Virus record (IMG/VR): IMGVR_UViG_2778261167_000009
From: a virus
Taxonomy: Duplodnaviria > Heunggongvirae > Uroviricota > Caudoviricetes
Direction: 5' to 3' (one strand)
Length of the DNA stretch: 11,902 nt
The position numbers and the translations under genes were made by a program. The notes below the pieces were generated by a model, which saw only the letters and a list, made by a program, of their open reading frames with translations, ran no database searches and had not been told where the DNA came from. This document shows, in pieces, positions 1-11,902 of this stretch. Numbering within the stretch: position 1 is the stretch's first letter; each line of letters opens with the position of its first letter.

Positions 1-234
1 CTACATGTTTTCACATGACTGTTGCGTTGACCAATTGAATCTACAGGTTCGTATGTTGCGCATATCCACGCCGTTAAGCTCAATACCGTCACGGCGCATT
101 ACCTCAGCCACCACACGCGCGTAATTTTCGGCTATCACGCTGTCCGGCTGTGTAGCCTGTTCGTCAGGCTGCTGACTGATTCCGGTAATGCGGCGAATTA
201 TTTTTAGTAGATCAGTTTCAGTCATTCTCGTCAT
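1..234 (-). CDS. Hypothetical 77-aa protein immediately downstream of terL (possibly a head-completion or connector-type protein; function not recognised)
   Basis: Complete ORF; its ATG (232-234) overlaps the terL stop (231-233) in an ATGA arrangement, and its TAG stop is at 1-3. Same strand and operon as the packaging genes. Confidence 0.5.
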   Translation of the reverse strand: MTRMTETDLLKIIRRITGISQQPDEQATQPDSVIAENYARVVAEVMRRDGIELNGVDMRNIRTCRFNWSTQQSCENM

Positions 235-1892
235 ACCCCATCAAATGCCGCTAGTCGCTCTTTCTGGCTGTCGCTCATATCAAATGCAAATTCCTCATGC
301 TCAGCCTGGAATGTGCCAAACGCCATCAGCGCCGCAACGCTCGGGTCTATCTTGTTGGATGATTTTTTCTTGTTCGGCTTGATATTGGCGTTCGCGTCAC
401 TCTGCATCACAACATTACTCATTGACCAGGCCAGCACCGGATCACCACGATGCACAATCACCTTCCGGTTAACAAAAACCTCGAACGATTTCGCCGCCGG
501 ACTGAAACGAAGGTAGGTTTGAGGGAACGGCTCCACCTCAAAGCCTGCCCCCTGTAACTGCGTTCTCAGGTGCGTGGCGTTCCACGTATCAAAGCCCACC
601 AGCCTGATATTGAAATTCTCTGCATCCGCCATGATGTCATCACGGATACGGTCATAATCAATGCAGTCACCCGGTGTTGTGCGTATCCAGCCCGCCTTTG
701 CCCACTGGCGATAGATGGCGCGGTTTTTATTGGCGGGGTTCTGTAGCTGAAATTCCGGCAGATAATGACGAGAAACCAGCATAATGGTTTTACCAACCGG
801 AAAGGCATAGCACACGCTGGAGATGTCGCTTGTGGATGATAAATCAAGCCCCGCGTAACACTCCTGACCGTGTAAATCTTCCTCCGTGAACGTTCCGGCG
901 CACTCAGCCCATGCACCGTTACCCATCCACGGCGTAGCCCCCTGACACCAGATATTGAATCGCTTGGTGAGCATTTCCACCCACTGCGACGGAATACCCC
1001 GCGCTTTCTGGATGGTTGAGGCCAGTTTTTCACGATCTACGGAAACATCGATATTGGGATTCGCCTTTATCCACATCGCCGGATCGTCAACCTCGCTTTC
1101 ATCATCCAGCTCATAAATCAGAACGAACATGGATTCGTTCACCTCTTCACCATCCAGTATCTGGCAGCAATAGTCGTAGTGTTGTTTACAGGCTGAAACA
1201 ACGTTGCTCCCCGATGTGGTGATGGCAAATAACAGCCCCTCCGGGCGTGCCCCCATTCCCAGTTCAAGCGCGGAATAAACCCCGTTGTCAGGGTGCAGGT
1301 GATATTCATCCACAATGGCAAGACTCGGGTTTGTACCTTCAATGGTTGCTGCTTTTGCTGCCAGTGGCTTTAACAGACTGTTGGTTTTCGGGTGTATCAC
1401 CTTGTGTGCCTGAATATTTACCCGCTTTCGTAACGGTCGGGATAAAAGGCACATCTGACGCGCATCATCAAACACGATCCGCGCCTGATCACGACTCACG
1501 GCGGCGGTGTAAATATCCTGCTGCCCGTTTTCCATAACCAGAAACCAGTTAGCCAGGATAGCGGCGACCGTGGATTTGGCATTTTTTCGCGGTACTTCAA
1601 TGAATGCGCTGGTGTATTTGCGCCGTCCGGTGGCCTTAACCTTAAAGCCCAGGATGCACGCAAAGGCGAACTGCTGCCACGGCTCCAGCTCAATGGGGCT
1701 ACCGCGCATTGCGCCTTTTACGTGCGGACACACCCTGGAAAAGGCAATAAACCGCTCCACGACCTCCGGATCGAACGTGTAAAGGGGGTTTTCAAGGTCA
1801 GAAAAATACCGTTTAACGGCCTGTTTCAGTCGTTTACAGGCCGTAATTTTGCCGTTTTTTACGCCTTCTGCGTACTCATGCCAGGCGGTCAA
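231..1892 (-). CDS. terL: Terminase large subunit
   Basis: 553-aa translation has a typical TerL N-terminal ATPase region (KITACKRLKQAV..., IAFSRVCPHVKG, LEPWQQF) and C-terminal nuclease region. The only in-frame start before residue 61 is TTG at 1890-1892, preceded by a purine-rich SD-like stretch (GAGGAAGAGGA). It overlaps the terS 3' end by 17 nt. Confidence 0.9.
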   Translation of the reverse strand: MTAWHEYAEGVKNGKITACKRLKQAVKRYFSDLENPLYTFDPEVVERFIAFSRVCPHVKGAMRGSPIELEPWQQFAFACILGFKVKATGRRKYTSAFIEVPRKNAKSTVAAILANWFLVMENGQQDIYTAAVSRDQARIVFDDARQMCLLSRPLRKRVNIQAHKVIHPKTNSLLKPLAAKAATIEGTNPSLAIVDEYHLHPDNGVYSALELGMGARPEGLLFAITTSGSNVVSACKQHYDYCCQILDGEEVNESMFVLIYELDDESEVDDPAMWIKANPNIDVSVDREKLASTIQKARGIPSQWVEMLTKRFNIWCQGATPWMGNGAWAECAGTFTEEDLHGQECYAGLDLSSTSDISSVCYAFPVGKTIMLVSRHYLPEFQLQNPANKNRAIYRQWAKAGWIRTTPGDCIDYDRIRDDIMADAENFNIRLVGFDTWNATHLRTQLQGAGFEVEPFPQTYLRFSPAAKSFEVFVNRKVIVHRGDPVLAWSMSNVVMQSDANANIKPNKKKSSNKIDPSVAALMAFGTFQAEHEEFAFDMSDSQKERLAAFDGV

Positions 1893-2232
1893 GCTCGTCC
1901 TCTTCCTCTGTTTCCGGTGGATTTCTGCGGCGGCTTACCGGGTCAAAACCCAGCAAAGAAGCCATTTTGATCATTATTCTTTCCGCGTCAGCCTTTGCGC
2001 TCAGGGCGGGGTTTCTGCTCTCGCTGCCCTGACTGTTAACAATGCTGAACCCGCGCGTCGCAAGGTCTTCGACGGCTTTGCGGTATATGGAGTAGTTAAC
2101 ACAATACAGTTCCAGATTGCTCCAGTCGGCGGGGGTAAGGTCTTCCCGCCCGGAAAGCTGGCGCGATTTTTCCTTCCACTGCCTGACCGCGATTTCATCC
2201 AGGTAAGCGGGGGCTTTTGGTGGTCTTGCCAT
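1876..2232 (-). CDS. terS: Terminase small subunit, P27-family-like
   Basis: Translation from the ATG at 2230-2232 (MARPPKAPAYLDEIAVRQW...LELYCVNYSIYRKAVEDL...NPALSAKADAERIMIKMASLLGFDP) resembles P27-type small terminase subunits. The ORF-track extension to 2373 runs through a G-rich non-protein-like stretch and is not used. Confidence 0.8.
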   Translation of the reverse strand: MARPPKAPAYLDEIAVRQWKEKSRQLSGREDLTPADWSNLELYCVNYSIYRKAVEDLATRGFSIVNSQGSESRNPALSAKADAERIMIKMASLLGFDPVSRRRNPPETEEEDELDRLA

Positions 2233-2520
2233 GTTCTTTTTTCGCCCAATTATTTTCAAAAAAATTACCGTGCACAAAAATTTGAGGGGGCGGTCGGTGT
2301 CCGGTAGGGACGGTTTCGTCCTGAAAACCACCCCCACCCCCTCTGACGGCCTCACCAGCGATTGCGAAAACATTCCATGACCTCGCGGTCACGGTCGGTT
2401 AATCGCTTCGCTGTGGTGCGTTTTGTGCGCCCTGTCCTGTTGGCTTTGTGCTCTGTCTCCTGTGTCTTCCATGTGTCACGCTGCCTTATCAGTCCACGTA
2501 TCAGCCTGGTTTGCTCCTGT
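2233..2520. other. Candidate cos/packaging-site region between the HNH and terS genes
   Basis: 288-bp non-coding gap directly upstream of terS, containing G/C homopolymer tracts (gaggggg at 2284-2290, ccacccccaccccctc at 2327-2342), an inverted repeat gaggggg/ccccctc and a short hairpin (2307-2321). Position matches where HNH-dependent cos phages carry cos. Not verified. Confidence 0.3.
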
Positions 2521-2961
2521 TCAGTCATCATCGCCATACATCCAGTCGTTACGGTGTGCCGCCCGTTCTTCCTGCTCGCGATACATGCCCGCTTTACGGT
2601 TTGCTTTCGTGGCTGGATCTTCCCGTGTCGTCTTACGGTTGTGGCACGTCTGGCACAATGCCTGGTGATTCCACTCAGGCCAGAAGAGAACATCACCGCC
2701 GCCATTGATGGGAATGATGTGATCCACCACAAGAGCTGGTGTATAAATACCCTTAGCCAGACAACGCACGCATAACGGGTTTTTGCTCAGGTACAGGGCG
2801 CGGTATTTGTCCCACTGTCGGGAATACCCACGTGCGCGGCGGTGTCCCCGTCTGGCATCCTCTGCACGCCATGCAGCCCGCCTGTGCTCTTCACACTTGC
2901 CGGACTTCACGCGCTTATTACAGCCCGGCTCAGTGCATCGCCTTAATGGTTGCCACGGCAT
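2521..2961 (-). CDS. HNH endonuclease, packaging-associated
   Basis: 146-aa translation with cysteine pairs (CTEPGCNKRVKSGKCEEH, CVRCLAKG) and an HNH core (VVDHIIPINGGG...NHQALCQTCHNRKT). ATG at 2959-2961 shares one nucleotide with the connector stop. Located immediately upstream of terS. Confidence 0.9.
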   Translation of the reverse strand: MPWQPLRRCTEPGCNKRVKSGKCEEHRRAAWRAEDARRGHRRARGYSRQWDKYRALYLSKNPLCVRCLAKGIYTPALVVDHIIPINGGGDVLFWPEWNHQALCQTCHNRKTTREDPATKANRKAGMYREQEERAAHRNDWMYGDDD

Positions 2962-3263
2962 CAGTACACCCCCACATCACGATAAACCGACCAGAGCGCA
3001 GAAATAGCCATAGGCAGTTCCGAGTGCTCAACTGGTGAAACCGCTTCCCGGTTCTCGTACAGGAAAGCGATGTACATCAGGCAACCAACACGTATTGCCG
3101 GGGTAAATTCCAGGCCGTCTTCAAAACGTTTCCCGATATGCTTCTGGCAGGCTTCCAGCGCCGCATCGGTATATATTTGCAGAAGTTCAACCTCACCATA
3201 AAAATCATCATCAAGGCGAAGATGGGCCATTACTTCATTAAGCGTAATTCTGGATTCACTCAT
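2961..3263 (-). CDS. Head-tail connector/adaptor protein, gp6-like
   Basis: Translation from the ATG at 3261-3263 (MSESRITLNEVMAHLRLDDDFYGEVELLQIYTDAALEACQKHIGKRF...) fits the gp6-like connector pattern. RBS GGTG lies upstream. The ORF-track extension to 3350 overlaps the portal 3' end and is not used. Confidence 0.75.
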   Translation of the reverse strand: MSESRITLNEVMAHLRLDDDFYGEVELLQIYTDAALEACQKHIGKRFEDGLEFTPAIRVGCLMYIAFLYENREAVSPVEHSELPMAISALWSVYRDVGVY

Positions 3264-4470
3264 CTTTTTCACCTTTAATTTCCACAGTCTGCTTCCATGC
3301 CTGGCTGAACTCGTCACCACCTTCACGCGGCGGCATACCCTCACGCTCACGGGCTTCGTTCGGATTCATGATCCCGTTCTTAATCCCTTTCTCATACGTG
3401 GCATAACGTTCGGTGGGTGTGGCGCGTAATAAATCGGCTGAATCAAACTCAACCAGATAACGGGTACCAGGTACGGGAGAAGCCACCAGCAAAGCGGCCT
3501 TGATTTGCTGTTCGAAGTTCGCCAGCCATGGGCGCATTGTCATGGTCAGAAACGCGCGGCTTGCCTCGCTGAAATTGCTGTAGGTGCTGTTGCTGTATTC
3601 CTGCAGAAAAATAGGCGATACGTTGAACATGCGGGCGATGTCTTCAATGGAGAAGCGACGGGAGGCCAGCCATTCCGCATCCTGGTTACTCATTCCCAGT
3701 TGCTTGTAATCCATGCCCCCTTCAAGGATTGGCGTTTTTCCGGCATTTTTCGCCCCCTTGTAGCGTTCCAGAGCATCTAATGCCTGTTTACCTTTCACGC
3801 CGTCCAGCCATTCGCCTGACGTGATAATCCCTGCCGCCATCATGCCATCTTTCATAATGCTGGCTCCGTGGCGCTGTTGAGCAAGGCCAAGCCCAAGCGC
3901 CTCACGGCAAATCGTGACAGGGGAGCGCCCCAGAAAGCCATCATCCGAGGCATAGCGGAGATGCAGAACTTCTTCCTGTAAATACGTGCGCACCGTTCCT
4001 GTATAGGGTTCGGTGATGGTATAGCGGTATTTGTGTGCGCCTGTGCGTTCCGGTACAACACACCCCGGCGCATAAGGATGAAGTGATTTTGGCTGCCCGT
4101 CCTGCCCCCACTCAATAACCGCATAGGCGTTACCGTTCAGCAGGCAGTGACGCATCATTGTGCGTTTAAACTGGTAAGGTGTCTGGCACGAATTAGGCTG
4201 CTCATTCAGCAGAATATCTACCGGGTGACTGTCCAGCCATTCCCGCGCCTCCCTGCCCTTGTCATTACGTACCAGATACAGATAACACGGCATCGTGGCC
4301 ACCGCCTCAGCGATGACAGAAACCGCGTTCATCACTGCAGGCAATGATTCAGCCGTCCCGGCAGAAACATATTCTCCGGATCCGGTATTCGGTACGCCGG
4401 ACAGCGCCAGAAAATCATCAATGGACAGGTTACGCTGCTCGCTTTTTTTACGACTAAAAGGCCACCACAT
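3256..4470 (-). CDS. Portal protein, HK97 family
   Basis: About 404 aa from the ATG at 4468-4470 (MWWPFSRKKSEQRNLSIDDFLAL...), with portal-like core motifs (FSIEDIARMFNVSPIFLQEY, RPWLANFEQQ). The start lies 1 nt after the protease stop, suggesting coupling. The upstream extension to 4560 is not protein-like. Confidence 0.9.
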   Translation of the reverse strand: MWWPFSRKKSEQRNLSIDDFLALSGVPNTGSGEYVSAGTAESLPAVMNAVSVIAEAVATMPCYLYLVRNDKGREAREWLDSHPVDILLNEQPNSCQTPYQFKRTMMRHCLLNGNAYAVIEWGQDGQPKSLHPYAPGCVVPERTGAHKYRYTITEPYTGTVRTYLQEEVLHLRYASDDGFLGRSPVTICREALGLGLAQQRHGASIMKDGMMAAGIITSGEWLDGVKGKQALDALERYKGAKNAGKTPILEGGMDYKQLGMSNQDAEWLASRRFSIEDIARMFNVSPIFLQEYSNSTYSNFSEASRAFLTMTMRPWLANFEQQIKAALLVASPVPGTRYLVEFDSADLLRATPTERYATYEKGIKNGIMNPNEAREREGMPPREGGDEFSQAWKQTVEIKGEKDE

Positions 4471-4471
4471 A

Positions 4472-5032
4472 TCACAACCCCGCCAGCTCAGACCAGCGAT
4501 GGCGATTATTTCCTGTCGGACGTAATTCAGGGTGCTGTGCAAACAACGAACGGTGGGCAATCTCCACGCCAGATTCTGGATAAGCAGGCATCGACGTTAT
4601 TGTGATTTCACGGAGTTCAGCGGCGGTTACGGTACGCAAATACGGTTTTTGCGCGATACTCCACTCCTCGCATAATGCGCGAAAACCAAAGCTCATTCCT
4701 GTAATGTCGCCACGCTCCACCAGCGTAAGCACATCTTTTCCAAGCTGGGTATCCGGCGGTGTCAGTTCAAAACGTAACCCGGTGTTATCCTCAGTCAGTA
4801 CCAGAGTGCCGGATTTGGTGCGCCCCAGCAGTCGGGTATAGTCATGCTCATACAGGCAGCGCACATCATTACCCGCCGCCAGATAGTCAGCAAAAGCCCC
4901 CGGCGTGAACTGTTCGCGGAATTCGTCCCAGATAATTTCTGAAAGGCTGTTCCAGCGAACGGCATACCCCACCAGCTTTTTATTGCTGGCGGTCAGTTCA
5001 GATGTGCGGATTTCAAAATCGGTGTTTTTCAT
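4472..5032 (-). CDS. Prohead maturation protease, HK97 family (S78/U35-like)
   Basis: 186-aa translation (KKLVGYAVRWNSLSEII, FTPGAF, LYEHD, LGRTKSGTL, GDITGMSFGF). RBS GGAG sits 8 nt upstream of the ATG at 5030-5032. Confidence 0.9.
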   Translation of the reverse strand: MKNTDFEIRTSELTASNKKLVGYAVRWNSLSEIIWDEFREQFTPGAFADYLAAGNDVRCLYEHDYTRLLGRTKSGTLVLTEDNTGLRFELTPPDTQLGKDVLTLVERGDITGMSFGFRALCEEWSIAQKPYLRTVTAAELREITITSMPAYPESGVEIAHRSLFAQHPELRPTGNNRHRWSELAGL

Positions 5033-5053
5033 CGGTGTACTCCATAAAACTGA

Positions 5054-5074
5054 AAAAGGAGGCCGCAGCCTCCT
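5054..5074 (-). terminator. Terminator-like or attenuator hairpin between the capsid and protease genes
   Basis: On the minus strand: stem AGGAGGC, loop TGCG, stem GCCTCCT (plus 5057-5074), followed by a TTTT run, lying in the 54-bp gap after the major capsid stop. Could raise capsid transcript levels relative to downstream genes. Confidence 0.4.
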
Positions 5075-5086
5075 CCTTACTCATGA

Positions 5087-6256
5087 CTAGCCAGCTTTCA
5101 TTTCCAGAATTTTGATGGCGTTTGAATCCACCACACCACCGCCCAGATATTTATCCGTGTGGACCTTGTAGAATCCGGGTTCAGTAATGTTGTCCGGTCG
5201 GGTGCGAATCCCTGTTACATGATCAACGATGAAATAACCACGACTGAAATCGCCAACCGCTAGCGGTGCTTTTCCTGTGCCGATGTCCGGCATGGACTCC
5301 AAGCAGTAAACAGGACGACCAAGCAACATATCCGGCGCACCTTCTTTAAGGCTGTCGCGCCAGATATAATCGCCGTTCTCATTTTTCAGCTTCTGTAGTG
5401 TCCCTGCCGTGCCCGAGTTCATCACCCAGACGGCATTTTTGCGGTATTTCGCTTTCAGCTTGTAGAGAATGTCGATCAGTTCGTCCGCTGTAATGGCGGT
5501 TCCACTTGCCGCTACCATTTTTTCAATGGTGCCAAAAGCGCGGGTTTTGTCACTGGTCGCCGCACGGGTGTAAGCCATGAAGCCTTTCGGCTTGCCGTTA
5601 CCGTCGCCATTAACAAAATCATCCTCTTCGGTGCTGGCGAACGTGTCGGCAATTTCGGAGGATAACCAGCCCAGAATATCCACCTCTGAAAAATCTAGGA
5701 TTTCCTGCGTGGTTTTCGGGTAGGCGTAGATCGGATTCAGCTTGATGGTTACGCGTTCAATTTTCGGGGTGTTGGTTTCACTGCGTGCGCTGCCTTCTGT
5801 GCCTCGTCCTACAGTTGCGCCGCCAGTGGAAACCAGTTTCTGAAACTCATTTGATTTTGCAGTCTTCACGGTCGCGATCACGCGCATAACACTGTCATCC
5901 TGTAGCTGGCGCATGACTTCGCGATCAAGCTCAGGAATTACGGTATATCCGCCATCCCTGCCGCTGTCAGTGCTGGTGGACAGAGATCGCACATCTCCGG
6001 TTACGATGTAGTTACGCAATTCATCAGATGATAATTTCTGGATGCCCGTTCCTGGCTTGCTGCGTTCTTCATCAGCCACAGACTCGAGGCGGGAAATTTC
6101 TGTGTCGAGGGAGTCGGCTTTTGCACGCAGTTCATCAAACTGTTTGCCCTCGTCATCGTTCAGGCTGCGGTTTTCACTGTCGGCTTTTTCCAGCAGAGAT
6201 CGCATCTGGTTTTTCAGGGCGGTTTTTTGCTGGCGGAGTTCGATTAATTTCTTCAT
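5087..6256 (-). CDS. Major capsid protein, HK97 family, with N-terminal coiled-coil delta/scaffold domain
   Basis: 389-aa translation. The first ~100 residues are charged and coiled-coil-like (KKLIELRQQKTALKNQMRSLLEKADSENRSL...), followed by an HK97-type capsid core (GGYTVIPELDREVMRQL, FMAYTRAATSD, GRPVYCLESMP). Confidence 0.9.
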   Translation of the reverse strand: MKKLIELRQQKTALKNQMRSLLEKADSENRSLNDDEGKQFDELRAKADSLDTEISRLESVADEERSKPGTGIQKLSSDELRNYIVTGDVRSLSTSTDSGRDGGYTVIPELDREVMRQLQDDSVMRVIATVKTAKSNEFQKLVSTGGATVGRGTEGSARSETNTPKIERVTIKLNPIYAYPKTTQEILDFSEVDILGWLSSEIADTFASTEEDDFVNGDGNGKPKGFMAYTRAATSDKTRAFGTIEKMVAASGTAITADELIDILYKLKAKYRKNAVWVMNSGTAGTLQKLKNENGDYIWRDSLKEGAPDMLLGRPVYCLESMPDIGTGKAPLAVGDFSRGYFIVDHVTGIRTRPDNITEPGFYKVHTDKYLGGGVVDSNAIKILEMKAG

Positions 6257-6481
6257 GAAGGTTTTCTCGTATTGGTTAAGATTCAGGACGTGAAACCAAC
6301 ACGGAGGGAGCGCCGCCCGACACTCTCGGCATCTCGCAGATCAACCCGGCATCGCGCAGGGGGTCAGGCGGCATTGTGGCGGCTCACGTCTGAGTGCCAC
6401 GCTCCAACATATACATAAAAATCAGTATGTAAACACCTGTCAGTCAGACCGAACAACCACGAAAGAACACGAACAAATAAT

Positions 6482-6511
6482 TTACAAAAGAAGTAAACCA
6501 TGGCCTATTAT
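6482..6511 (+). promoter_or_regulatory. Putative sigma70 promoter for the AT-rich cargo gene
   Basis: TTACAA (6482-6487), 18-bp spacer, TATTAT (6506-6511), then RBS AAAGGA (6531-6536) and ATG at 6543. Pattern match only. Confidence 0.35.
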
Positions 6512-6542
6512 TGCTGTCTCTGACTACAACAAAGGACGCATC

Positions 6543-7049
6543 ATGAATTTAAGCGCAATGGTATACCCTGATACTTTCATAATTAATGGCGAATCATTCA
6601 GAGGTAAAAGAAACGCAAAAGAAAACAAGGTATTAATTCCATATACAAATGAACCGGAAGTAACTATTGGTCAACACATTATCCAGCGTGTCGGTAAAAA
6701 CGAGATAAATCTAAAAATTATAGATATGAAGTTGCTTCCCAATGGAACCCTCAGACAGGGAACCAATCATCCAAATATGTTGACTCTCTATATTGAAAAT
6801 ATCACGGGAAATGAACATATGACGCCAACTAAAAGTAATACATTTAACATTGGTTCAATTAGTGGTGATCAAGTGCAGATAGGTGAGCATAACCATATGC
6901 TGGTAAACATCAGCATCACTGAACTGGTTGAAAAAGTCGCTAAATCGGGGGATGTACAAGCCAAATCAGTATTAAAGCAGTTACTGGAAAACAGTACCGT
7001 TGCCAGCATTGTTGGGGCTGGCGCAAGTGCCCTAATAGGCTTACTGTAA
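6543..7049 (+). CDS. Hypothetical 168-aa protein, AT-rich cargo/moron gene; unrecognised N-terminal domain and C-terminal hydrophobic glycine-zipper-like tail
   Basis: The only long plus-strand ORF in the core, opposite to all flanking genes and visibly more AT-rich. Good RBS and its own promoter and terminator. Translation ends ...ENSTVASIVGAGASALIGLL. No family recognised. Confidence 0.7.
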   Translation: MNLSAMVYPDTFIINGESFRGKRNAKENKVLIPYTNEPEVTIGQHIIQRVGKNEINLKIIDMKLLPNGTLRQGTNHPNMLTLYIENITGNEHMTPTKSNTFNIGSISGDQVQIGEHNHMLVNISITELVEKVAKSGDVQAKSVLKQLLENSTVASIVGAGASALIGLL

Positions 7050-7051
7050 AA

Positions 7052-7086
7052 AAATGGCCTGGATTTTACCAGGCCTTTATTATTTT
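7052..7086. terminator. Bidirectional rho-independent terminator between convergent genes
   Basis: Stem GGCCTGG (7056-7062), loop ATTTTA, stem CCAGGCC (7069-7075), flanked by an A-run upstream and TTTATTATTTT downstream, so a U-tract follows the hairpin on both strands. Stop codons of the 6543-7049 gene and the 7085-7333 gene abut it. Confidence 0.6.
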
Positions 7087-8314: not shown

Positions 8315-10132
8315 TTAATTTTTGCTATCGTCATTAGTGACCGATACACATGATGGCATCCAGTCTTCTGATTCCTCCGTCAGTGTCACGTTTGAACGCA
8401 AACCGTGCTTCGTTTTCCGTTTCATATACTCCCTGCCATATTCCGCCATTGCCCCCGGCATATCTTTACCGAAGCGCGTCAGTGTTACAGGTTTACCAAA
8501 CCCATGTGCCCTCATATAAGCCAGATAGGCATGATAGAGATACCTGCGTGGGCTGAATGGCACAATTTCAGCATTACCCACTAACAGGCCATCACACATT
8601 ACCGACGCCATGAGATAGCCGCAGAAGTCCACCAGCGAATCCCCCTCTCGCTTTATCGCCAGTGCTTCTTCAGATTTCTGCTGCTCATATAACAGGCGTC
8701 TGGCTTCGTCCTGGTCAGCAAACCGTGTAAGCAGATGGCGAATCACTACCGCCAGCTCACCTTCTATTTTTTCCGCCAGCATTGGATCACGTTCGTTCTC
8801 CGGTACAACTTCCGAAAAATTGAATATCACCCGACGACGTGAGATCCCCCCGCTGCGGTCACTGAATGACATGGCGTTATTGTTAACCGCCAGCACTACT
8901 GCCGGAATACGTGTTGAGTAGGGGGCTTTGTGTTTCGGGTCAATTGCCACCTTGTCACCGCCTGTAATAGCCTTAATCCCTGCCCCATCACCAGCGTAGC
9001 GGGTCATATCCGGCATGATAATCAGCGAAAAGCCAACCACTAACGCGCGTTCCCTTGCATCTTCCAGCGCCTTCATGCTTGCCGATACTGTGTTGGCCTT
9101 ACCCGCCAGCATGGTGCAAATCTCCGCCATCACGCTTTTACCACTTCCCCCTGGACCTGTTACCTCAATGAATAACTGCCAGTCGTACCGGTTCGCCAGC
9201 ACCATGAATAATGCAGCCAGTACGCGATCCGCCTTGCGGTCATTCTCAGCCACCGAACGGCGTAACCACTTCCAGAAATTCGGCGCATGTGTTGCCAGCG
9301 TTTCCCCCTCTGCTGGTGGGCTGAAAGGTAATTCACTGGCAATTAACAACCAGTCGTTTTTGTTATGCTCCCGAAAATTACCTGTTCTGGTATCAAATAC
9401 CCCGTTACTGAATCCAATCAGGTTACGGGCTGTATTCCCCATTACAGGCAAACTTAACTTCATGGTATCGACCGCTGATTTAATAGCGTTCTGTGAATAG
9501 CTGATCTCCGCATCAATGAAAATCTGCGCCATAGCACGCTGTAACTCTTTATCCTGAACCGGCTCCCATACAACGCCGTTGTAATGGTGAACAGTGTCAG
9601 AGTCAGCATGAATCGCCAGTTCACCACCATAATGTGCCAGGAGAACTTCGCCGCGTTGACTTGCTCCCATCTGGTTAAGCGCCAGTGATGAAGCGTTATC
9701 GTCTTTTACCCGCTCTTTTTTCTTTACAGGCAGTTCAACTACCTTTTTCTTTTCCGCCAGCTCTCCCCGCTCACGCTCCAGATATTCGCGCCAGTTCTCC
9801 CGTTTCTGGCTGTGCATTCCTTCAGGGTAATAATCAGCATCCCTGACACCTGCCGCTGCCAGTTTCTGCCCGATGGTATTAACAAGCACCGGACGCAATA
9901 ACCCCGCCTGATAGAGACGCACGCGATAGCGTCCGTCCGGTACGATTTGCAGGTTGTCCAGTTCGGCAAGTTGTTGCTCTCCAAGCCAGACAGGTGGCAC
10001 GTTATCGCCTGCCAGTCGCCCGTCCTGTTCCTGCCACTGCTTCGCATGTGCCCACGCATCACTACCCGCAAAAATGATGACTTCCGTCATTTTGTCACGC
10101 GGCTGGTGTTTTAAATTTGGCGCTTTTTTCAT
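8315..10132 (-). CDS. Replication protein: P4 alpha-like primase/helicase (D5-N-like domain plus SF3-type P-loop NTPase)
   Basis: About 605 aa from the ATG at 10130-10132 (MKKAPNL...) with RBS GGAGAGAG. Walker A VTGPGGSGKS, Walker B-like LIIMPD, and a D5-N-like central region (NLIGFSNGVFDTRTGNFREH). The ATG overlaps the upstream ORF stop (ATGA). The ORF-track start at 10147 is GTG. Confidence 0.9.
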   Translation of the reverse strand: MKKAPNLKHQPRDKMTEVIIFAGSDAWAHAKQWQEQDGRLAGDNVPPVWLGEQQLAELDNLQIVPDGRYRVRLYQAGLLRPVLVNTIGQKLAAAGVRDADYYPEGMHSQKRENWREYLERERGELAEKKKVVELPVKKKERVKDDNASSLALNQMGASQRGEVLLAHYGGELAIHADSDTVHHYNGVVWEPVQDKELQRAMAQIFIDAEISYSQNAIKSAVDTMKLSLPVMGNTARNLIGFSNGVFDTRTGNFREHNKNDWLLIASELPFSPPAEGETLATHAPNFWKWLRRSVAENDRKADRVLAALFMVLANRYDWQLFIEVTGPGGSGKSVMAEICTMLAGKANTVSASMKALEDARERALVVGFSLIIMPDMTRYAGDGAGIKAITGGDKVAIDPKHKAPYSTRIPAVVLAVNNNAMSFSDRSGGISRRRVIFNFSEVVPENERDPMLAEKIEGELAVVIRHLLTRFADQDEARRLLYEQQKSEEALAIKREGDSLVDFCGYLMASVMCDGLLVGNAEIVPFSPRRYLYHAYLAYMRAHGFGKPVTLTRFGKDMPGAMAEYGREYMKRKTKHGLRSNVTLTEESEDWMPSCVSVTNDDSKN

Positions 10133-10428
10133 TTCTGCTCTCTCCACGCGGCAATCATGTTTTTCAGTTCCTGTAGTTTTTTATCCACATCCACACGTGA
10201 CACATGGTTATTTCTGGAAGGCGGTATTTCCCGCCGGAATCTGCAAATAAAGATCTCCACGTTCAGCGAGCTATGAAATGAATAGCCATCACGAATAAAG
10301 TACACACGGTCAAACATTATCGATTTTACTGTTACTCTGTTGCCGTTCTTATCCCGATAAATAGCGCCGGGGATAATTTTGGGATGTGCATAACCGCTGG
10401 CAGTCAAGCCAGATAAATACGTTCTCAT
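10129..10428 (-). CDS. Hypothetical 99-aa protein, translationally coupled to the primase/helicase
   Basis: Complete ORF with ATG at 10426-10428 and RBS GGGGA; TGA overlaps the primase ATG. No family recognised. Confidence 0.6.
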   Translation of the reverse strand: MRTYLSGLTASGYAHPKIIPGAIYRDKNGNRVTVKSIMFDRVYFIRDGYSFHSSLNVEIFICRFRREIPPSRNNHVSRVDVDKKLQELKNMIAAWREQK

Positions 10429-10755: not shown

Positions 10756-10951
10756 GGCACACCCCCTGACGAATACGGGCGGCGAATACCATCACGCAGC
10801 CAGCCGGGGATTGCTGGCGTGCTTCCTGTTCGCTGGTGGCCACGATGTGAATCACGCGCGGTTGTGCCGTGCTCAGGGCGATAAAACGCCAGATGAATTT
10901 ATTCAGGTTGTGCGAGTCCCGCCCTTGCGGGTGTGTGGTATGATTTAACAT
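10748..10951 (-). CDS. Candidate 67-aa first gene of the leftward operon
   Basis: This is the C-terminal in-frame part of the spurious 306-aa ORF. ATG at 10949-10951 is preceded by GAGGT; stop at 10748-10750 overlaps the next gene start. Translation MLNHTTHPQGRDSHNLNKFIWRFIALSTAQPRVIHIVATSEQEARQQ... is plausible but unrecognised. Confidence 0.35.
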   Translation of the reverse strand: MLNHTTHPQGRDSHNLNKFIWRFIALSTAQPRVIHIVATSEQEARQQSPAGCVMVFAARIRQGVCHA

Positions 10952-11047
10952 AGCTACCTCGATACTTCTGCTATCGTTGGTGGTTAGAAGCCCGGTTAGT
11001 GTTAGCGCACTGCCGGGTTTCGTCGTTTCTGCACCTTGCATCAACAA

Positions 11048-11100
11048 GGTGTTAAACACCAATTTAAGCCTAGGTGTTAAACACGTCAAGTGTTGAACAC
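11048..11100. promoter_or_regulatory. Three palindromic operator-like sites overlapping a putative promoter for the plus-strand small-gene module
   Basis: GGTGTTAAACACC (11048-11060), GGTGTTAAACACG (11073-11085), GTGTTGAACAC (11090-11100). The last overlaps a -35-like TTGAAC (11093-11098), with 17-bp spacer and -10-like CATACT (11116-11121). GGTTAG direct repeats lie upstream (10982, 10994, 11000). Confidence 0.45.
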
Positions 11101-11150
11101 TTATTTTTTTTCCTGCATACTGCATTTGTTTTTTGTAAGGAGTACACAAC

Positions 11151-11330
11151 ATGGCGACAAAAGCAGTAAACGCAAAATCACAAACAGTTGCGGCAAGGGT
11201 TCCGCATGAAGTTATGAACAATGTTGAGGCGGTAAAAATGCCTGGTGAAAGTACAGGGCAGTTTGTAACAGCAGCATTAAAGCGAGAAGTTGAATACCGC
11301 CAGCATCGCAAGGCCAAAGAGCAGGAGTAA
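11151..11330 (+). CDS. Arc/MetJ-like ribbon-helix-helix DNA-binding protein, 59 aa
   Basis: Below the ORF-track size cutoff. Strong RBS AAGGAG (11137-11142) 8 nt before the ATG. Translation MATKAVNAKSQTVAARVPHEVMNNVEAVKMPGESTGQFVTAALKREVEYRQHRKAKEQE has a beta-strand then two helices in the RHH pattern. Confidence 0.6.
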   Translation: MATKAVNAKSQTVAARVPHEVMNNVEAVKMPGESTGQFVTAALKREVEYRQHRKAKEQE

Positions 11331-11387
11331 CCATCACCAGCGCCGTGGTGCGGTGAACTGTGGCGCACAGGGTTACAGGTATCTACG

Positions 11388-11567
11388 ATGACTGACAAAT
11401 CATTAAAGAAATTATCCTCATCCAAGAAAAAACAACGCAAAAATGCGGTAAACGAACATGAACCGGAGAGATTCGCACCATGTGCGTTTATCCTTGAGAA
11501 GTACCTTAAAGAGTATTCTAGGAAAATACGCTCATTGCAGGCATGGCAGCGAATCGAGCCAGACTGA
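11388..11567 (+). CDS. Hypothetical small basic protein, 59 aa
   Basis: Below the ORF-track cutoff. ATG at 11388 with weak SD (AGGT); translation MTDKSLKKLSSSKKKQRKNAVNEHEPERFAPCAFILEKYLKEYSRKIRSLQAWQRIEPD. Lies between the RHH gene and the plus-strand terminator. Confidence 0.4.
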   Translation: MTDKSLKKLSSSKKKQRKNAVNEHEPERFAPCAFILEKYLKEYSRKIRSLQAWQRIEPD

Positions 11568-11631
11568 TAGCATTGCCCACTAGCCGACAACCTGGTATTC
11601 TGGATATGCTCAAGTTTAGTGTTATGCCACT

Positions 11632-11660
11632 GGCGACCGCCCCCGGTCGCCTTTGTTTTA
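11632..11660 (+). terminator. Rho-independent terminator ending the plus-strand small-gene module
   Basis: Stem GGCGACCG, loop CCCC, stem CGGTCGCC (11632-11651), followed by TTTGTTTTA. It sits inside the 306-aa minus-strand ORF, arguing that ORF is not real. Confidence 0.6.
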
Positions 11661-11677
11661 TGTGTCATAGCTCCCCC

Positions 11678-11902
11678 CTAGGCTGCCTTACCTGAATTAA
11701 CGCGGTCACGGCTTTGCACCCAGTCCATAACTTCGGAAAGCAACCAGCCTACAGAACGCCCCCCAAGATTACGGCGAGACGGAAAGCCCCCTTTCTTCTC
11801 CAGTTCGTAGCGTGTAGTACGGCTGACGCCTGTTAACTTACGACATTCATCCTCACGAATTACGCGATCTGTTAGTGATTGAAATTGTGTATTTTGATTC
11901 AT
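11678..11902 (-). CDS. alpA: AlpA-family phage regulatory protein (winged-HTH activator/excisionase-like)
   Basis: 74-aa translation (IREDECRKLTGVSRTTRYELEKKGGFPSRRNLGGRSVGWLLSEVMDWVQSR) matches the AlpA pattern. The ATG is at the window edge, so the RBS and any upstream integrase are not visible. Confidence 0.85.
   Translation of the reverse strand: MNQNTQFQSLTDRVIREDECRKLTGVSRTTRYELEKKGGFPSRRNLGGRSVGWLLSEVMDWVQSRDRVNSGKAA

Follow-up and report, generated by a model that had tools for sequence, protein, structure and literature searches.

Among phage-inducible chromosomal islands, the capsid-forming ones (cf-PICIs) are satellites that build their own small HK97-type capsids and borrow only the tails of a helper phage, as shown for the prototype EcCIEDL933 (bioRxiv 10.1101/2022.09.08.507074). 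HK022-like phages are among the known helpers. Islands of this kind, also treated by He et al. (bioRxiv 10.1101/2025.02.11.637232), are plentiful and pass from one species to another in the form of tail-less capsids, which makes the timing and balance of capsid production of real interest. Here we describe the packaging operon of such an element, an E. coli phage satellite represented by the IMG/VR record IMGVR_UViG_2778261167_000009; the whole stretch of 11,902 nucleotides (nt) is referred to below as the window. The likeness of the window to EcCIEDL933 rests on published statements.

Alqurainy et al. (bioRxiv 10.1101/2022.09.08.507074) called the organization of cf-PICIs unusual and noted "different genetic organisations" relative to the helper, and the capsid-first order that we find is exactly as listed in the cf-PICI papers. 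The gene order is already known and published for these islands. The cf-PICI literature within reach of our search makes no mention of a terminator, hairpin, promoter, leader or cos spacer, and a map of the cis elements appears to be undescribed within the searchable literature. We add such a map for the operon, consisting of a probable promoter, a structured leader, a post-capsid hairpin and a cos spacer, together with an extra small gene.

Gene order of the packaging operon

Transcribed from the minus strand, the operon reads capsid, protease, portal, connector, HNH endonuclease, a gene of 61 amino acids (aa), cos, TerS, TerL and a small open reading frame (ORF). Its genes are as follows.

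5087-6256, minus strand: first operon gene, major capsid protein with the HK97 fold, 389 aa (PF05065, 3.5e-71; "phage major capsid protein" in RefSeq)
4472-5032, minus strand: prohead serine protease S78, 186 aa (PF04586, 1.2e-45)
3256-4470, minus strand: portal, 404 aa, start ATG at 4470 as in RefSeq (PF04860, 6e-93)
2961-3263, minus strand: head-tail connector of the HK97 gp6 / Ad1 type, 100 aa (PF05135; phrog_40 "head-tail adaptor Ad1", 8e-30)
2521-2961, minus strand: HNH endonuclease, 146 aa (PF01844, 8.8e-10)
2352-2537, minus strand: small 61-aa gene, a coding sequence in RefSeq (phrog_3173, 6e-27, full length)
1876-2232, minus strand: TerS of the P27 / Terminase_4 type, 118 aa, matching the 118-aa RefSeq product (PF05119, 4e-23)
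231-1892, minus strand: TerL, 553 aa, TTG start, ATPase and nuclease domains (PF20441, 2.7e-51; PF03354, 4e-26)
1-234, minus strand: small ORF after TerL, 77 aa (phrog_1561, 7e-33, profile positions 1-60 of 93)

An earlier note on this DNA, made from the sequence alone, had assigned the strand and the gene identities correctly; its eight genes all lie on the minus strand, with Pfam matches at the family level. It had also described the order as a departure from that of HK97, and this is borne out by the records of HK97, HK022 (NC_002166) and ST64B, all of which run TerS, TerL, portal, protease, capsid. Compared with HK97, the capsid and portal genes are exchanged around the protease gene in the window. 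The head genes of the window lie upstream of HNH and cos, whereas those of HK97 lie downstream of TerL, the HK97 capsid gene being followed by adaptors and tail genes. The window and HK97/HK022 are alike in using the same protein families and in keeping HNH, cos, TerS and TerL contiguous. The nearest true-phage capsids (ST64B-type) are ~37% identical or less, and the phages that encode them keep the canonical order.

We compared the locus with 80 related loci encoding capsid homologues, sampled at one genome per species. They represent three bacterial orders, with members in Enterobacterales, in Pasteurellaceae (Testudinibacter) and in Orbaceae (Gilliamella, Frischella). The series capsid, protease, portal, connector, HNH, TerS, TerL occurs on one strand in 80 of 80, as far as locus length permits judging, and alpA and the primase gene are usually upstream of the packaging genes. 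The synteny comparison proposed in the earlier note thus gives an order that is unlike that of the HK97-like phages and the same in every satellite relative. "Non-canonical" is an apt description with respect to HK97; within the cf-PICI family the capsid-first order is the fixed, published norm rather than a peculiarity of one locus.

The idea that the order is a rearrangement or assembly artefact specific to the window sequence has nothing in its favor except the difference from HK97, and we give it virtually no credence. Matches covering at least 80% of the window occur in 53 complete E. coli genomes, and the order is the same in 80 of 80 loci of other genera, besides being published. The genome matches and the syntenic loci together refute an artefactual origin.

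Identity of the island

Over 11.9 kb the window shares 98.7% identity with an island of E. coli TUM12357 that is flanked by thiM and rcnR. This near-identical copy is ~14 kb long and encodes a tyrosine integrase, an AlpA-type regulator and a primase. Its integrase gene is ~1 kb past the window end, and the window itself stops within the alpA-side region. From the integrase to thiM, the annotation of the TUM12357 island shows no tail or lysis genes, and the scanned ORFs of the window have no matches to tail or holin families in Pfam or phrog. Upstream of the packaging operon, the minus strand of the window also encodes an SSB, a DUF4222 protein and the two genes listed here.

11678-11902, minus strand: AlpA-family regulator (PF05930 Phage_AlpA, 4.8e-16)
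8315-10147, minus strand: D5-type primase (matches to D5_N, DUF5906 and Pox_D5)

Among the core components that SatelliteFinder uses to recognize cf-PICIs, the window encodes the AlpA regulator, primase-replicase, capsid, protease, portal, connector, HNH, TerS and TerL, and it is without the head-tail adaptor. Under this scheme the element would be a cf-PICI variant with 10 of 11 components, the adaptor being the gap; 9-10 of the 11 components suffice for SatelliteFinder (PMC10085698). Of 81 loci, 53 encode the adaptor (~112 aa), which lies between portal and connector; some ten complete loci, spread over several genera, are without it. A tblastn search with the 112-aa adaptor of one relative (L003) gave no homologue in the window, the best E-value being 4.4. 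Because the adaptor and connector are reported in the literature to set tail compatibility, adaptor-less islands may use different tails.

A conserved hairpin after the capsid gene

The earlier note had reported a stem-loop and U-run after the capsid gene. We find it at 5078-5053 on the minus strand, as AAGGAGGAGGC-UGCG-GCCUCCUUUUU followed by CAGUUUU.

5046-5078, minus strand: terminator-like hairpin with the core GGAGGC-UGCG-GCCUCC (5073-5058), an A-U/G-U extension, then UUUUUCAGUUUU

The core has six pairs, five of them G-C, and one additional A-U pair brings the strong pairs to seven. The full hairpin has 11 pairs (5 G-C) closed by a 4-nt loop, and is followed by UUUUU, with a second U-run beyond. 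It is positioned 8 nt past the capsid stop codon and 20 nt short of the protease ATG. A GGAG ribosome site belonging to the protease gene follows on the 3' side of the hairpin, 7 nt upstream of the ATG. The T-run is found only on the minus strand; the complement on the plus strand is without one. The site has the anatomy of an intrinsic terminator, which is to say a GC-rich stem-loop with a U-run that is intergenic and on the transcribed strand.

Because the fold alone is not exceptional (z = -1.4 in a 63-nt context), the case for the hairpin rests on conservation. Terminator-like sites in the window number 22, versus 11.8 in shuffles (~2x). We searched the capsid-protease spacer in 151 elements, namely the window plus those of 80 genome loci and 80 IMG/VR contigs in which the gene pair is complete. 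MAFFT misplaces the 5' arm of the hairpin by one column in some rows, so per-sequence detection with a shuffle control was used instead. A GC-rich hairpin is present in 139 of the 151 elements (92%), represented by 59 distinct sequences. When only distinct spacers of at least 30 nt are considered, 97 of 100 have the hairpin, compared with 15% of shuffles.

The loops vary freely (UUCG, UGCG, UACG, UAUCGC, CACAAC, GAAAA, UAUAU) and the stems are kept, with compensatory changes from G-C to A-U in the window lineage and in one relative (L026). Directly after the stem, 78 of the 139 hairpins have a run of 4-6 U. Spacer lengths in relatives are 32-54 nt, or 1-18 nt in some, and shortly past the hairpin the protease site GGAGUCC is conserved, 7 nt ahead of the ATG. 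In three Proteus loci (L045, L053, L058) the GGGGC/GCCCC hairpin is replaced at the same position by a longer, unrelated one, GGGGCGUUCCUG...CAGGAGCGCUCUUUUU, so that the structure is kept.

Phages of canonical gene order have hairpins at the corresponding place. In HK97, GGGCGGG-GAAA-CCCGCCC-UUUU begins 6 nt past the capsid gene (gene 5), and the HK97 record (NC_002167) labels this hairpin "terminator, putative" (5192-5213), with similar putative terminators after the portal and major tail genes. ST64B has GGGGCGC-UGAAC-GGCGCCCC on the 3' side of its capsid gene. The post-capsid hairpin is common in HK97-type modules whatever the gene order and, because canonical-order HK97 also has one, it is not a product of the capsid-first arrangement. 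Signals of this type are already known, and this hairpin adds one more example. An Rfam search of 4900-6600, with E-values up to 10, gave only chance matches to small nucleolar and long non-coding RNAs, and placed neither the hairpin nor the leader described below in any family.

Putative promoter and structured leader ahead of the capsid gene

Conservation across genera is strong in the 230 nt that precede the capsid ATG. Three elements stand out in this region.

6487-6473, minus strand: box TTGTAAATTATTTGT, recognized by its conservation, upstream of the promoter-like pair
6406-6433, minus strand: putative sigma-70 promoter TTTACA, 16 nt, TATGTT, from a consensus scan
6254-6408, minus strand: structured 5' leader of ~150 nt, with helices P1 and P2, a C-rich linker and helix P3

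The consensus scan that gave the putative promoter returned fewer sites overall than in shuffles; in the -10 region, ATGTATATCTT, conservation is 90% or more across 113 distinct leaders. The replication operon upstream ends at a terminator (7056-7075), and a divergent gene lies in between, from which we infer that the packaging operon is driven by a promoter of its own. From the putative promoter, transcription would begin roughly at the first nucleotide of P1 in the leader. No LexA box and no nut boxA/boxB was seen by eye in the promoter and leader, for which no formal scan was made.

Helix P1 (6400-6376) consists of GUGGCACUCAGACGUGAGCCGCCAC, has the loop GACG and is nearly invariant, with two pairs that co-vary in three genome loci (GUGACACUCCG.CGGGAGCCGUCAC). 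In P2 (6372-6312) the pairing is kept despite wide sequence variation, and the C-rich linker comes next. P3 (~6296-6260) ends 4 nt from the ATG, its 3' arm lying over the expected position of the ribosome-binding site. The leader has a minimum free energy of -60.7 kcal/mol (z = -3.2).

A covariance model, R1, was built from 26 leaders. It has 33 full-length leader matches (84-146 bits) plus four weak ones (11-19 bits), and all full-length matches except one end at the capsid start codon. That exception, at 3213-3364 of locus L043, is a full-length copy of the leader (117 bits) located after the protease gene in a ~1.9-kb insertion between protease and portal; the extra copy may reflect a rearrangement or another, incomplete element. 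In the R1 alignment, which was fitted to the model and so favors structure, 96.5% of cells are paired (35-48% in slid controls), 14 pairs change on both sides, and 0 of 500 shuffles reach any of five measures. An independent analysis with MAFFT and RNAalifold finds 10 pairs with compensatory change in the leader, and the G-U pairs favor the capsid-sense strand.

At least 120 IMG/VR stretches contain the P1 motif. It lies no more than 260 nt upstream of the cf-PICI capsid gene in 78 of 80 IMG/VR contigs, the other two being cut off. Most Xenorhabdus/Photorhabdus, Gilliamella and Testudinibacter elements have a different, AT-rich region upstream of the capsid gene. Because these elements carry such a region instead, the leader is lineage-specific among cf-PICIs and dispensable for their lifestyle.

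Two conserved RNA structures, the 5' leader and the 3' hairpin, flank the capsid cistron. Possible functions for the leader include a 5'-terminal stabilizer, a translational control element (through P3) and a put-like polymerase modifier. The put RNAs of HK022 (PMC9378689) resemble the window leader in having two stem-loops transcribed right after the promoter, a likeness of analogy only, and the leader differs in its third helix adjoining the start codon. We tried and rejected homology to put RNA, since R1 has no match in HK022 (or in HK97 and ST64B), the putL sequence is unrelated and there is no Rfam match.

The near invariance of P1 across genera, compared with 25-35% divergence of the element's own proteins, points to a conserved host partner. 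It is conceivable, if distinctly unlikely, that the leader is a cis-acting RNA that sets passage past the post-capsid terminator and thus the capsid-to-portal-to-terminase ratio. It might do so by modifying the polymerase in the way of put, or by serving as target for a factor from the helper or the host. The leader is a well-supported, unnamed RNA structure that is specific to cf-PICIs and may merit follow-up.

Gene junctions and a possible mechanism for capsid excess

The junctions of the operon, in the direction of transcription, are given below.

capsid/protease: 54-nt gap
protease/portal: 1-nt gap (TGAtATG)
portal/connector: 8-nt overlap (3256-3263)
connector/HNH: 1-nt overlap (ATGA)
HNH/61-aa gene: 17-nt overlap
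61-aa gene/TerS: 119-nt gap
TerS/TerL: 17-nt overlap
TerL/77-aa ORF: 4-nt overlap

The stop/start overlaps listed in the earlier note are present for portal/connector, connector/HNH, TerS/TerL and TerL/77-aa ORF. The protease and portal genes, which it had also linked in this way, are 1 nt apart; an overlap would need an upstream TTG start that RefSeq does not use. Only two spacers in the 6.2-kb operon are non-coding, the hairpin spacer and the cos spacer. The abutting or overlapping arrangement of the genes downstream of the capsid gene would suit translational coupling.

Capsid protein is needed in hundreds of copies, and portal, connector and terminase in about a dozen or fewer. Transcription from the operon's own promoter would pass the capsid gene first. 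At the hairpin a fraction of the polymerases may stop, or the stem may shield the capsid 3' end from exonucleases, or both, and the remaining polymerases would continue into the abutting, translationally coupled genes. The outcome would be capsid message in excess of the portal, connector, HNH and terminase messages. Phage T7 has an incomplete intrinsic terminator, T-phi, after its major capsid gene, which enriches capsid message and allows partial read-through. This is an analogy of design only; T-phi acts on T7 RNA polymerase and the genes are unrelated. The attenuator proposed in the earlier note is plausible in that it fits the anatomy and conservation of the hairpin, and from these sequence features we consider it somewhat likely that the hairpin raises the ratio of capsid to downstream message by partial termination, 3'-end protection, or both.

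Several points weigh against this role. The U-run has 3 U or fewer in 61 of the 139 hairpins (44%), and 12 of the 151 elements (8%) have no detectable hairpin, nine of these with spacers of 1-18 nt, among them five with a spacer of just 18 nt, and three with spacers of 44-57 nt. Because the U-runs are often weak and some elements have no hairpin, efficient termination cannot be essential to the family. RNAalifold, when run on the hairpin spacer, gives only 4 consensus pairs and little covariation, which is thin because GGGG/CCCC is nearly invariant. The stem is short (seven strong pairs) and begins so near the stop codon, at 8 nt, that a terminating ribosome could hinder it. Finally, if the leader or a helper factor makes the polymerase terminator-resistant, the hairpin would not attenuate.

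With such a resistant polymerase, modified by the leader RNA (as by HK022 put) or by a helper antiterminator, the hairpin would be a post-transcriptional exonuclease barrier or processing site that stabilizes the capsid segment. The same kind of hairpin is found inside the HK97 late operon, which is Q-antiterminated as in lambdoid phages, and this agrees with the idea, as do the weak U-runs in many relatives and the conserved two-helix leader at ~+1 of the predicted transcript, as in putL. U-runs of at least 4 occur in 36 of 66 distinct spacers with the leader versus 10 of 34 without it, but this trend is weak and confounded by phylogeny, the leader-less set being mostly Xenorhabdus. The absence of any sequence or model likeness between the leader and HK022 putL, including the lack of R1 matches in the three phages, counts against a resistant polymerase, and no antitermination is reported in the cf-PICI literature searched; a literature search on PICI antitermination or packaging-operon transcription returned nothing relevant. 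We regard this explanation as rather unlikely.

The hairpin could instead act on translation, parting the ribosome traffic of the capsid gene from that of the protease gene, so that the protease and the genes coupled to it start from the weaker GGAG at a lower rate. The capsid/protease junction is the only one in the head module at which genes neither abut nor overlap, and the protease GGAGUCC is conserved just 3' of the hairpin, both of which would fit. We nevertheless think a role in translation very improbable: hairpin-less elements with a capsid-protease spacing of 1-18 nt indicate that the separation is not required, and the U-run, although unnecessary for this role, is frequent. Still harder to credit is a full terminator, with the protease and later genes expressed from a second promoter. 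The 5-U run and the second U-run in the window would be in keeping with complete termination, but there are only 20 nt from the U-run to the protease ATG, in which our scan found no promoter-like site, and the spacers of the relatives (32-54 nt, some 1-18 nt) leave no room for a promoter.

The 61-aa gene and the probable cos region

Two features between HNH and TerS are absent from the earlier note, the 61-aa gene and the 119-nt cos spacer.

2233-2351, minus strand: probable cos spacer, non-coding, with the G-rich GGGGGTGGGGGTGGTTTTCAGGAC ending at ~2318

LR881103 (16.5 kb, deposited as a phage) is a linear-form relative of the window element. Its left end is 22 nt before TerS, and its right end is just past the HNH region, aligning to window positions 2396-2318. 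Because of this right-end alignment, the 119-nt gap most likely holds cos, and we infer a cleavage position near 2318. If the ends of LR881103 are packaged termini, the virion DNA would end as in HK97, with TerS/TerL at the left and HNH at the right. The earlier note had given TerS 165 aa, which is over-extended. The true start is the ATG at 2232, which gives the 118 aa of the RefSeq product, and the first 47 codons of the longer ORF fall in the non-coding cos region.

The 61-aa gene is kept as a protein, with in-frame indels, in 22 loci from many genera (tblastn), and its product has the C-terminal motif RDRExxECFRNR. From its position adjoining cos, we would guess at an accessory role in packaging. 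A terminator-like site at 2394-2375 lies within the coding sequence of this gene and is probably not a terminator.

At the other end of the terminase genes, the small ORF after TerL is 77 aa long in the window and 93 aa in the phrog_1561 family and in the near-identical island. Window bases 1-45 are not alignable to that island. This suggests that recombination has joined the window, at a breakpoint here, to another variable region downstream.

Upstream context

Two features separate the replication genes from the packaging operon.

7056-7075, both strands: bidirectional terminator-like hairpin, GGCCTGG-loop-CCAGGCC, with T-runs on both strands
6543-7049, plus strand: accessory gene, 168 aa, AT-rich (37% GC), phrog_5789, divergent from the capsid operon

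The 168-aa accessory gene has no Pfam match. It occupies the variable slot ahead of the packaging operon, a slot reported to carry immune systems in cf-PICIs. The bidirectional hairpin comes right after it and would close both this gene and the replication operon.

Further upstream, ~700 nt between alpA and an Icd-like gene (10950-11677) are largely non-coding on the minus strand, and a listed ORF of 306 aa in this interval is probably spurious. The plus strand of the interval has a small gene of the YlcI/YnfO family and a strong terminator (11632-11651). This stretch may be the regulatory region of the island.

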